Source: an uncultured Methanosarcinaceae archaeon (GTDB lineage Archaea > Halobacteriota > Methanosarcinia > Methanosarcinales > Methanosarcinaceae). Taken from it: a DNA stretch of 64,000 nt. Positions 9,117-58,207 of this stretch are shown piece by piece (position 1 is the first letter of the stretch; every line of letters starts with the position of its first letter). A program made the position numbers and the translations under genes. The DNA lies in NCBI GenBank assembly GCA_963727895.1, contig CAVSHT010000005.1, positions 384,001 through 448,000 of the forward strand, given 5' to 3'. The notes beneath the pieces are model-generated. The model saw nothing but the letters and a program-made list of their open reading frames with translations. It was not told the origin of the DNA and made no database searches.

Positions 9117-9545
9117 TCATCGGTAGTATTTATTATAATTGTTATAAAAGTTGTTATAATTGCCATACCAGCTGTGATAATTGCCGTACCAGCTGTTATA
9201 TTTTAACAACCACGCCATGTACATTTTATACCAATTATTGTAATATTTGTCGTGCTTCTTGTGGTTCCACTCATTCTTTTGGCGGTTCCAATTATTCCTT
9301 TGTTGGTCCCAATTATTCTTTTGGCGATTCCAATCATTCTTTTGGCGATCCCAATTATTCCTTTGTTGGTTCCAATTATTTCTATCCCCAATATTCTTTT
9401 GCTGGTTCAAATTATTTCTATCCCCAGTATTCTTCCCACCATTATTATATGCATTATTCGGAGCTGCACTTACTGCTGCAACTGTCACTGACATTACAAA
9501 ACAAAATGCCAGCAAAATTCCTAGTATCTTTCTCATTTTCAGCAT
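9117..9545 (-). CDS. Secreted Asn/Trp/Tyr-rich heptad-repeat protein
   Basis: Signal peptide MRKILGILLAFCFVMSVTVAAVSA; 21-nt repeats; GGGGGT RBS. Confidence 0.8.
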   Translation of the reverse strand: MLKMRKILGILLAFCFVMSVTVAAVSAAPNNAYNNGGKNTGDRNNLNQQKNIGDRNNWNQQRNNWDRQKNDWNRQKNNWDQQRNNWNRQKNEWNHKKHDKYYNNWYKMYMAWLLKYNSWYGNYHSWYGNYNNFYNNYNKYYR

Positions 9546-9889: not shown

Positions 9890-10062
9890 ATCCAAGGAAA
9901 ATATATGGATATTAAAGAAATGGTCCAACTAGTTGATTAATATTGAAATATTCAGAAGACTGCTGATAAGATAGGAAACGAAAATTGAGAATTACCTTGC
10001 TATGCTTCATTTAGGATGTGCATGTATAACATTCAGGGCAGCAGGACTTTTCGGAAGGCTCT
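9890..10062 (+). mobile_element. IS5-family 3' remnant related to the element at 20343-21215
   Basis: GAAAATTGAGAATTACCTTGCTATGCT...GCAGCAGGACTTTTCGGA-AGGCTCT matches 21133-21215. Confidence 0.85.
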
Positions 10063-10182
10063 TAATGAGTATGATTATTGTACCTATGTATCGATTCCAC
10101 AAAAAACCTCTCTATTTTATATTTGCGAGAGGCGCCGTTCAGATCGTTCCGCGGTTCTGACAGTGTAACATAAGTTCTGTAA

Positions 10183-12315
10183 GTGCGACAAGATGTTATG
10201 TCATAAATTGCCTTGTGCTACTCTTTCCATTTAGAGTAATCCTATTATGAGGTGCATCAGCAGTAATGCAGTTGTACTAAGCTCGTAAGACAATGTGGAA
10301 AAGCCTGAAAGTCTAACTTGGGTCATCTGCTAGGGTAAAAATGCTATGAAGAAACATATGTTGAATCATTGTACGGGTCGTGACTCATGACAAGCGAAAC
10401 TAGACTGATACGCTTGAACCAAACGGTATGAAAGCAGGCTGCGATGGTGTTACAGACGTCGCAGAAAATGGACATACGACTTTCCGGTCTATAGATGGCT
10501 TCTAAAGCATTTACATTATTTGTGACATAAAACTTGGTAAGCCCTATATGCTCCTTTTAATAAAAAAAAAAAGAGGTAGAGACTCTGTGAAGGGAATTAA
10601 TTGCATAGAGGGTAGAGGATTCAGTAAAAAGCGAATGTCAATCTGTAATGGAATTGGATAGGGGTTCAAACTTTGCCTTGATCCGAAAGGGTGCAGACTT
10701 ACTGATTGGTGTTCTATTGTATGAAAGGAGGCAAACTTCTGAATGTAAGTATTTCAACGATATCCCTTCAGGATAAGAAGCTTACAGACGCTCATCTCTC
10801 CCAGAAATGGAAAAGTATCAACTGGCATCAAGTAGAGAAGAGTGTTAATAAGTTGCAAACCCGAATTACAAAAGCAGTCTTACAAAACAAATGGAACCTT
10901 GTCAAGAGATTACAGTATTTACTGACTCATTCCTATTCCGCCAAACTTTTGGCAGTAAGAAGAGTTACTCAAAATAAAGGAAAAAGGACATCTGGAATCG
11001 ATGGTGAGAAATGGTTAACACCTGACTCCAAAATGAAAGCTGTTCTTAGTCTCACTGGTAAAAGATACAAAGCTAAACCCCTTAAAAGAGTCTTCATCAA
11101 TAAACCTGGTAAGAAGAAGAAACGTCCTTTAGGTATCCCTACAATGTATGACAGAGCTATGCAGTCTTTATACGCATTAGCTCTTGAACCCATAGCTGAA
11201 ACTATGTCTGACATCAGGTCCTTTGGATTTAGAAAACACCGAAGTACTAAGGATGCATGTCAGCAAATCTTTCTATGTTTAAGCAAGAAAAATTCAGCCC
11301 AATGGATCTTAGAAGGCGATATTAAAGGATGTTTTGATAATATAAATCATCAGTGGTTGCTGGCTAATATTCCAATGGAAAAGTCAATACTAACTCAATT
11401 TCTCAAAGCAGGTTTTATTTACAAACGTCATCTGAATCCAACAAAAGCAGGCACGCCACAAGGCGGGATGATCTCCCCTATTTTGGCTAATATGACATTG
11501 GACGGTCATCGAGAAGTTACTTTTGGCTGAATACCCAAAAAGAAAAGAATTCAACCAAGGTTAACTTCATCAGATACTGCGATGATTTCATAGTAACTGC
11601 TAATTCAGAAGAAACTGCCAGAGAAATCAAGGATATGATTGCTGTTTTTCTTAAAGAAAGAGGTCTTGAACTATCTGATGATAAAACTCTTATCACAAAT
11701 ATTAATGAAGGCTTTGACTTTCTGGGCTGGAATTTCCGCAAGTACAAAGGCAAGCTTCTGATCAAACCTTCCAAGAAGTCCATTAAAAGATTCACTGAAA
11801 CAATTAGTCAAACCTTAAGAAAAGGGATAGCATGGTCCCAAGATAACTTAATTTCCAAACTAAATCCAATAATAAGAGGTTGGACTAACTATCATAATTC
11901 AGTGGTCTCTTCGGAAACATTCCAGACACTTGACCATCGAATCTGGGAAATGTTATGGAGATGGGCTAAAAGAAGACATCCAAACAAATCCAAAGATTGG
12001 ATTGTCAACAAATATTGGAAGCAAAGTACTACACGAAAATGGAACTTCAGAACAGAAAGAAACAGTTTATTGCTTTTATCCAAAACCAGAATCTATAGAC
12101 ACATTCCTTTAAAACTGCAAATGAATCCATTTCTTGATATCGACTACTTCCATGAACGTCATAATAAATTAAGTTCCCGGAAAAGTCAATCCGTTTGAAA
12201 AAAAACTGCTGCCTGATACAGAAAGGGTTATAGAACGCTTGAGCCGGATGAAGGGAAACTTTCAAGTCCGGTTCTTAGAAGAGGGAGAGCGAGTAATCGC
12301 TCTTTCTTATTCAAC
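10183..12315 (+). mobile_element. Group II intron (probably chloroplast-like class)
   Basis: 5' GTGCG; domain V GAGCCGGATGAAGGGAAACTTTCAAGTCCGGTTC at 12241-12274; domain VI hairpin ending in AC; boundaries confirmed by the empty MITE copy. Confidence 0.95.
10706..12198 (+). pseudogene. ltrA: Group II intron reverse transcriptase/maturase, frameshifted at about 11505-11550, no endonuclease domain
   Basis: RPLGIPT, GDIKGCFDNI, GTPQGG, RYCDDF, GFDFLG, X-domain LNPIIRGWTNY; two frames. Confidence 0.93.
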
Positions 12316-12675
12316 AATTACAAATTTTAAAAAGTTTTTGAGCCATAAATTCCATATCCGAAGATCAATTTTCCCATAATACACAAAAACTTGACTTCAA
12401 ATTTACAGCAAATTTGCGACACTGCCGCGGTTCTGGAAAACGGCGATGATTTTTGAAGATTTTGAGGATATTTTGAGCGTTTTCCAGCGATATTTATGTA
12501 TATCCAAGATCCTGATATCATGTTGTGGAGGCTCTACGAAAGCTCCAGTAACAAGCGTATCCTCGATAAGTGCCGAATTTTCATCTTGGTTCTGAGCTAT
12601 AAAGAACTATGGTTTAACTATATTATATTTAGATCCAACCAGATATATATATTTGATCAGACCCTATATACTTAC

Positions 12676-57662: not shown

Positions 57663-57796
57663 GATAAAATAGAACTTAATATAATCAAATAATCTAATGA
57701 TAATTCCTTGTTATCAATCATTAATTCGTCTATACTTAATATAAATACTATTTTACTACTAAATTATTTCTTATTTTGGATCTTTTAATAATATTT

Positions 57797-57932
57797 GACA
57801 GTGTAACACAAGTTCAGTAAAATCACAAATTTTTAAAAGTTATTGAGTAGAAAATTCCACATCAGAAGATCAATTTTTTTTACTATTTACAAAAATTTAA
57901 CTTAGAATTTACAGCAAATTCGCGACACTGCC
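57797..57932. mobile_element. 136-bp MITE, intron-free copy
   Basis: GACAGTGT...ACACTGCC ends; TSD TAATATTT at 57789-57796 and 57933-57940. Confidence 0.92.
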
Positions 57933-58207
57933 TAATATTTAGTCCTGTACGTTAGACTCTGAATAGTATATAAATAAAAAAGAAATGATTGTTTACTACT
58001 ATTCTTTAATAGATTTATCAATTGACAATTACCTTGTTAAGTGTTAAATTTTTTAGTTTTTAAATGTTATTCCATAAATTAAAACTTTGGTGTTTAACAA
58101 AAGCTTCAACTCCTTAATATTTTAAGTTCCTATAAAAGTTCTAATATGTCAAATATATCTTTTTGTAAAATTGTTTCAATGAATTATATTTTATTTTAAA
58201 AAAAGAA

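Follow-up and report, generated by a model that had tools for sequence, protein, structure and literature searches.

An endonuclease-less group II intron probably retrohomed into the IS256-type terminal inverted repeat of a miniature element in a Methanosarcinaceae archaeon

How did a 2.1-kb group II intron come to lie inside a transposable element of 135 bp while leaving both ends of that element intact? The question is raised by a 64,000-nt stretch of DNA from an uncultured Methanosarcinaceae archaeon (G000:C5:384001-448000, hereafter the window), G000 being the source assembly (3.67 Mb, 84% complete). Group II introns of bacteria and archaea persist by inserting where they do no harm, and homing into an insertion sequence (IS) is the textbook solution, as in RmInt1. 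The intron in the window is very probably an endonuclease-less element resident in Methanosarcina that retrohomed into a terminal inverted repeat (TIR) of the IS256 family, here that of a 135-bp miniature inverted-repeat transposable element (MITE). This reading is carried by the anatomy of the nested elements, by a pairing between intron and target that covaries across relatives, by the recurrence of the same insertion site, and by the divergence between the arms of the filled MITEs, all of which were observed directly. The coordinates of the features are collected in Table 1.

The intron begins with GTGCGAC at 10183 and ends with ..TTCAAC at 12315, in agreement with the GUGYG and AY boundaries of group II introns, and the same boundaries were shared by a second copy in G000 and by relatives. 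Two Rfam models matched above their gathering thresholds, namely RF02012 (group-II-D1D4-7) at 10219-10363 with 60.6 bits (threshold 34) and RF00029 (Intron_gpII) at 12239-12315 with 61.4 bits (threshold 40). The bulge of domain VI was visible in the RF00029 alignment, and domains V and VI of the window copy look intact. The hallmarks of a group II intron found here are the boundaries, domains V and VI, a reverse transcriptase (RT) and maturase gene in domain IV, and pairing of two exon-binding sites (EBS1 and EBS2) with the 5' exon. Pfam detected no HNH or other endonuclease family in the intron protein, and none in the 59-residue tail after the maturase (GIIM) domain. An intact homologue (G001, 488 aa used) matched PDB 6me0_C with E 3e-149 over residues 24-478, where it aligned with residues 21-480 of the 562-residue chain; it matched LtrA at 5.9e-42 and TIGR04416 with 345 bits (cut-off 300). 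We take 6me0 to be a CL/IIB intron ribonucleoprotein (RNP). The element is an endonuclease-less group II intron, putatively of chloroplast-like/IIB type by its best PDB match. A preliminary description of this DNA had already called the intron endonuclease-less; this holds for its domain content, but the protein gene is also broken into two open reading frames (ORFs). Contigs from three RNA-library sets and one DNA set, compared with 10000-12600, contained no joint over 10182/12316, and contigs of this kind can show neither transcription nor its absence. The RNA-library contigs of X16 matched parts of the intron, with 1 difference over 158 nt and 4 over 219 nt.

When the intron was removed, 10159-10182 joined 12316-12426 and a 135-bp element (GACAGTGT...ACACTGCC) was rebuilt. 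The second filled copy and an empty copy, G000:C5:181905, match its left arm without a difference (100%); its right arm matched this empty copy (G000:C5:181771-181905) at 101 of 111 positions. An empty sibling in the window aligned with the rebuilt element from end to end at 82% identity and carries a perfect target-site duplication (TSD) of its own (TAATATTT at 57789-57796 and 57933-57940, 8/8). Up to this point the preliminary description was accurate to the base: the intron at 10183-12315, 24 bp inside the left end, both ends preserved, and a 135-bp MITE with an 8-bp TSD, collinear with 57797-57932. A MITE profile gave 22 nhmmer matches at E<=1e-3 on 12 contigs of the G000 assembly (best 1e-39). 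Among 19 full-length copies the duplication was 8/8 in four, 7/8 in one, 8/9 in one and degenerate in 13; TSDs of the IS256 family are typically 8-9 bp. The MITE is 135-136 bp long and has no ORF, and its left end (GACAGTGT..) and the reverse complement of its right end (GGCAGTGT..) share a repeat of ~25 nt. This TIR has a consensus near GGCAGTGTGCCnAAAGTTCTGTAAA, and 46 such ends occur in G000 at <=6 mismatches. The same TIR bounds a degenerate 1.37-kb IS at G000:C14:28023-29394, whose ORF matches Pfam Transposase_mut (6.4e-51), and an IS in G010:C1, whose intact 375-aa ORF matches the NCBIfam IS256 family transposase NF033543 (7.5e-107, 357 bits). Only broken copies, and no intact cognate transposase, were found in the G000 assembly at its 84% completeness, and exact 24-nt MITE left ends are present in nine other genomes of the genus. 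The small element is a MITE derived from an IS256-family transposon. One MITE copy (G000:C3:12035-12198) was inserted 3 nt past another IS256-type end (GGCAGTGTAGCGAGTTTTCTGTAAAATT, then GATAGTGT..), showing that these elements also nest in each other.

A hairpin (stem 10439-10446/10457-10464, -12.5 kcal/mol, z -2.66) carries EBS1 (TTACAGA) in its 10-nt loop. Base for base, EBS1 complements the end of the 5' exon, TCTGTAA, as had been pointed out before. EBS2 at 10383-10389 was absent from the preliminary description and was revealed by aligning relatives; together, EBS2 and EBS1 of the window copy form 13 of 14 pairs with the TIR. Another candidate for EBS2, AACTTG around 10317, was rejected because the covarying loop in the alignment of relatives is 10383-10389. 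In the empty sibling (57797-57932) the target reads CACAAGT TCAGTAA and gives 11/14 pairs. The change in its first intron-binding site (IBS1, TCAGTAA) had been noticed earlier; there is a second one besides, in the IBS2 part (CACAAGT versus CATAAGT).

By itself, a complement of 7 nt within a 2.1-kb intron is not rare (estimated at ~1 in 8), and it might be considered that the intron inserted here just once, that the site belongs to a MITE by accident and that EBS1 matches by chance. We regard such a coincidence as extremely improbable: the match falls in a hairpin loop, where EBS1 is expected, guides and targets covary over 14 variants, and the same TIR position is used at 4/4 junctions in G000 and in 11-13 of 59 genomes of the genus. 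The covariation set consisted of 14 distinct full-length variants out of 22 aligned rows, after leaving out truncated copies (G014:638k, G008:C61, G005:C4 and G000:C4b) and duplicates (G000:C4f, L019 and L020). Cognate guides and targets formed on average 11.3 of 14 pairs (n=14 variants), compared with 5.4 +/- 1.9 for non-cognate combinations (n=180), of which 0.6% reached 11. EBS2 tracks the TIR subtype, reading ACTTTTG opposite CGAAAGT in G017 and ACTTTCG opposite CGAAAGT in G014. In a sister lineage, which lies in another target, both guides have changed, with TAAAACC opposite GGTTTTA and TTATGG or TTACCG opposite CCATGA or CGGTAA, and the guides of more distant intron lineages likewise covary with their targets. 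A possible EBS2 variant for the right-hand TIR type in G019:C9 was omitted; the intron fragment there ends at about nt 201, and the supposed EBS2 is perhaps not intron sequence. The 3' exon started with A in every case seen, which would fit a fixed EBS3-IBS3 pair.

The same site was found again elsewhere in the genome and in the genus. Besides a second full copy (C4:152342-154467, 95.1% identity), a BLAST search of G000 with the intron returned a pair of 5' fragments (153 and 114 nt), a 3' fragment and an internal piece that has diverged. Each of the four intron 5' junctions in G000 lies directly after TIR nt 24: the second full copy occupies another MITE, whose duplication is CAACAAGT (8/8), and the two 5' fragments are preceded by ..GTACCAAAAGTTCTGTAA and GGCAGTGTACCAAAAGTTTTGTAA. 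The preliminary description had looked to copies in unrelated targets as the mark of a one-off insertion, and what G000 holds is a single, shared TIR position at 4/4 junctions. The sequence after the 3' fragment (G000:C14:42029-42165) could not be related to the TIR. A TIR followed by GTGCAACAG at G000:C4:77198 was considered as a fifth remnant; only ~9 nt of it are intron-like, and it was not counted.

Among 41 genomes, 29 gave intron matches at E<=0.001. Twelve of the 39 collected 5'-junction sequences were at this TIR position (four in G000, two in G019, and one each in G010:C1, G017:C15, G014, G007:C40, G022:C270 and G005:C4), and three further TIR junctions were found in G041, G058 and G062. 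Where the 5' part of the intron was >=86% identical to the window copy, 12 of 14 junctions were in TIRs. A 104-nt junction probe gave junction-spanning matches in 13 of 59 Methanosarcina genomes, and the sequence was inspected in 11. G062 and G072 had 15 and 14 matches to this probe, mostly from a more distant lineage (71-77% identity).

In G010:C1 an intact transposase gene comes after the intron in the same orientation, the host being an autonomous IS, and the site, TIR nt 24/25, precedes the start codon of that gene by ~58 nt. One 3' exon in G009 and two in G022 correspond, as reverse complements, to the right arm of another MITE subfamily, indicating that the right-hand TIR is also used. 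The hosts at this junction include one autonomous IS256 element and at least three other MITEs. Because occupied sites occur in autonomous IS copies and at both MITE ends, the target was redefined as the IS256-type TIR. The sequence that the guides are predicted to recognise is nt 11-25, the inner half of the ~25-nt repeat, and not the MITE as such. The earlier proposal of a multicopy MITE as the homing target was therefore right in naming a multicopy transposable element found through EBS/IBS pairing, but the actual target is the TIR.

Insertion would then proceed by steps that are partly borrowed from other introns. The intron RNA would pick its site by pairing of EBS2 (ACTCATG) and EBS1 (TTACAGA) with TIR nt 11-24 (CATAAGT TCTGTAA). 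It would reverse-splice between TIR nt 24 and 25, as is presumed from endonuclease-less introns (passages of PMC4424553). Such introns use replication-fork strands as primers according to the same passages (PMC4424553), and priming from the replication fork is assumed here too. The transposase would keep the TIR conserved and transposition would multiply it, so that the intron would have a large stock of almost identical, harmless targets in non-coding mobile DNA, both in autonomous IS copies and in MITEs.

Two filled MITEs in one assembly could also go back to a single entry, after which an IS256 transposase, acting in trans, carried the composite of MITE and intron (2.27 kb, with both outer TIR ends preserved) to a new place and so produced the second filled copy. 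In both filled copies the left TIR retains its outer 24 nt and the right TIR is complete, and their 8-bp duplications are perfect yet different (GCGGTTCT and CAACAAGT), perfect duplications being rare in empty copies (2/17). A DNA contig of run X1, moreover, carries the MITE left end and the intron (4 differences in 440 nt) beside a third flank. However, the two filled MITEs agree at 98 of 111 right-arm positions (88.3%), against 95.1% identity between their introns, and the filled arm on C4 is closest to the empty copy C5:181771-181905 (106/111, 95.5%). Since the arms are more diverged than the introns and a filled arm is nearest to an empty copy, separate homing is favoured. The two intron 3' ends in G022 sit in clearly different MITE copies. 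The junctions of relatives in an autonomous IS, in other MITE subfamilies and at the right-hand TIR are predicted by homing and not by transport of a composite, and an intact cognate transposase was not found in the G000 assembly. Transport of the intron as transposon cargo, which the preliminary description had suggested, is thus unlikely. Of the sign of co-transposition that it had named, different TSDs around identical MITE halves, the differing TSDs were seen, but the halves (98/111) are not identical. For the two full copies in G000, independent retrohoming into two different MITEs is favoured by their sequences.

Three of the 46 TIR-like ends in G000 give 13/14 pairs with the present EBS2 and EBS1. 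Two of them hold full introns, and no full intron was found at any poorer-matching site among the 46. The third, G000:C5:181905, has the full 13/14 match and is empty, showing that a sequence match is insufficient for occupancy. Close empty copies carry one IBS1 change each (TATGTAA, TCAGTAA, TCTATAA and TCGGTAA), which is suggestive only; by a rough estimate such single changes are no more than expected by chance at ~12% element divergence. The idea that MITE polymorphism decides occupancy, also put forward earlier, is weakly supported by these sequences: two of the three best sites are filled and none of the poorer ones, but one perfect site is empty and the intron proteins are broken.

Besides this empty site, several points weigh against retrohoming into the TIR as we describe it. 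One A.C mismatch separates EBS2 of the window copy from its own target, and the chloroplast-like assignment comes from the best PDB match only. The perfect 8/8 duplications of both filled MITEs, against 2/17 in empty copies, would also fit a recent transposition of intron-bearing MITEs, although they are just as much to be expected if a perfect target survives only in young MITEs that have not yet mutated. With arms of just 111 nt, the divergence argument amounts to 13 versus 5 differences. Finally, at 84% completeness of the assembly, an intact intron protein or transposase could be unassembled.

The intron protein gene was disrupted in both full copies of G000. Compared with the intact G001 gene, the window copy has gained one base near 11508 and lost two in an A-rich tract near 11536; the C4 copy shows the same loss of two and a further loss of one, and its codon 26 is an in-frame stop. 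A further close RT gene was not found in the G000 assembly, where the next best, on C11, was 28% identical. A tract at the same place of the RT gene was present in 4/4 near-full TIR-targeting copies (A5GA4 and A9 in G000, A12 in L006, G010:C1, and A11 in L008, G009:C477). All four were out of frame at the tract, which measured 15, 15, 18 and 16 nt, compared with 17 nt in the in-frame G001, G063 and G019; the retargeted sister lineage has no such poly(A) or A-rich tract and is in frame. The shared position of the tract, the 2-nt deficit common to both G000 copies and the intact appearance of domains V and VI in the window copy would be in keeping with functional copies, in which the frame break is bypassed by transcriptional or ribosomal slippage and the supply of RT/maturase is low and regulated. 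That the element is active in this way is nevertheless improbable: the extra base near 11508 in the window copy, and the lost base and codon-26 stop in the C4 copy, are beyond rescue by slippage. The length classes of the tract vary among copies, as would follow from a mutational hot spot or from misread homopolymers in metagenome assemblies, and a perfect target is still empty. The A tract itself could be a mutational hot spot, a homopolymer assembly error or a device for slippage expression. Both proteins are frameshifted, an intact copy or cognate transposase was not found at 84% completeness of the assembly, and a perfect target stands empty; the two full G000 copies are therefore most likely immobile relics, and they are possibly poor splicers.

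Table 1. Features of the filled MITE, its intron and the empty sibling (positions are those of the window)
Feature	Coordinates	Strand	Evidence
Left 8-bp TSD of the filled MITE, GCGGTTCT	10151..10158	+	8/8 identical to 12427-12434
Left MITE arm, TIR nt 1-24, IS256-type; intron 5' exon	10159..10182	+	GACAGTGTAACATAAGTTCTGTAA
IBS2 (CATAAGT)	10169..10175	+	6/7 pairs with EBS2, one A.C; covaries across relatives
IBS1 (TCTGTAA)	10176..10182	+	7/7 Watson-Crick pairs with EBS1; covaries across relatives
Group II intron, 2133 nt	10183..12315	+	GTGCG start; Rfam RF02012 and RF00029; second copy 95.1% identical
EBS2 (ACTCATG)	10383..10389	+	Intron 5' regions aligned with their exons
EBS1 (TTACAGA), loop of hairpin 10439-10464	10450..10456	+	Exact complement of IBS1
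First intron-protein piece (RVT_N, RVT_1), premature stop	10706..11530	+	Pfam E 4.6e-35 and 1.3e-24; +1 base near 11508 versus intact homologue
A-rich tract, frame lost, 2 bases fewer than intact homologue	11531..11545	+	Same deficit in second G000 copy
Second intron-protein piece (RT end, maturase/X GIIM)	11635..12198	+	Pfam GIIM E 3e-28
Intron domains V and VI	12239..12315	+	RF00029, 61.4 bits; AGC triad and GAAA loop in alignment
Right MITE arm (3' exon), right TIR end ..GCGACACTGCC	12316..12426	+	nhmmer E 2.8e-28
Right 8-bp TSD, GCGGTTCT	12427..12434	+	8/8 identical to 10151-10158
Empty sibling MITE, 136 bp	57797..57932	+	82% identity end to end with the rebuilt element

Related introns differ in target and in state. 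The sister lineage (L007, G001:C15 10838-12967; L018 in G063, with L130 = G063:C44; L011, G019:C49) is 89-90% identical and encodes an intact protein of 488-514 aa. Its target is ACATAGGTTTTAC(CATGA/GGTAA), followed beyond the insertion point by AACCTATG, and the exons around that point are mutual inverted repeats (CATAGGTT... and AACCTATG), which makes the site hairpin-like. L131 (G062:C49) is an ORF-less derivative of ~720 nt, in which the 5' 607 nt of the intron are joined to the 3' 91 nt, and it lies after GGCAGTGTATCAAAAGTTCTGTA. In the complete 5.75-Mb genome G041 (L129, G041:C1:5104000-5112400), an outer intron 82% identical to the window copy lies after a degenerate TIR, and its ORF is interrupted by ~5 kb with at least three further RT-coding intron pieces. 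Another lineage in the genus inserts after ..CTTTCCGCAG or ..CTTTCGGCAG (G012, G008, G024 and L019-L021). The RT gene of the window intron holds AATTTCCGCAAG at 11727-11750, which may be a near-target for that other lineage. Outside the nested elements, an ORF at 9117-9545 (-) encodes 142 aa with a signal-like N-terminus and many repeats of the NNWNQQ(R/K)NNW(D/N)RQKN type.

The closest known system is RmInt1 in ISRm2011-2 of Sinorhizobium meliloti, and the homing of an intron into a transposon is not unprecedented. RmInt1, too, is described as a group II intron without an endonuclease, and the multicopy ISRm2011-2 contains the site at which it naturally homes (PMC1802570, PMC8914252 and PMC4238363). 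It belongs to class D/IIB3, and its insertion splits the transposase ORF of an IS630-family host, so that mobility of the IS depends on splicing (a passage of PMC4238363). Going by these accounts, both introns lack an endonuclease domain and both live in copies of another mobile element. The site of the window intron, however, is a non-coding IS256-family TIR, at either end and also in gene-less MITEs, and not a transposase gene. Whereas RmInt1 is assigned to class D/IIB3 in that passage, the best structural relative of the window intron's protein is 6me0_C.

Two other groups of introns invite comparison. The nested group II introns of M. acetivorans (Dai and Zimmerly 2003, as summarised in part of PMC4424553) home into the ORFs of other introns and have no coding exons. 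The outer intron of G041, which stands after a degenerate TIR and has introns nested in its ORF, resembles this summary; an outermost exon that is an IS256-type or MITE end is not mentioned in that part of PMC4424553. Class C (IIC) introns are also endonuclease-less and use repeated non-coding motifs (terminators, attC) as safe sites (a passage of PMC4424553), and on this account they too choose repeated non-coding DNA. They differ in that IIC introns recognise a stem-loop with a short IBS1, whereas the window intron pairs over 14 nt of EBS2 and EBS1 with a specific sequence; its RNA matches the D1-D4-7 model and its homologue the protein of an IIB-type RNP. A literature search of incomplete coverage, and so no proof of absence, returned no description of a group II intron in a MITE or an IS256 end.

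A broader reading is tentative, and we hold it to be doubtful rather than probable. The intron lineage would be a long-term specialist on IS256-family ends throughout the genus, following TIR subfamilies through EBS2, entering IS copies and MITEs at either end and spreading between genomes as their passenger, with its RT/maturase perhaps throttled by the slippery poly(A). Splitting of the TIR at nt 24/25 could disable or modulate transposition of the host element, which would make the intron a regulator or killer of MITEs and not a neutral guest.

The finding opens no long-standing question, and the copies studied here look dead. Its significance lies in the sequence recognised, which would be the transposase-binding end itself, a choice that brings gene-less MITEs, and either end of the element, into the host range. 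The target of the intron would thereby be tied to a sequence whose constancy is maintained by another selfish element. Homing into TIRs may explain the non-coding outer exons described for Methanosarcina introns. In annotation, 2-kb 'insertions' in MITEs and split TIRs would be intron events and not new transposons. The EBS2/TIR co-variants across 59 genomes form a natural series in which the retargeting of a group II intron can be studied.

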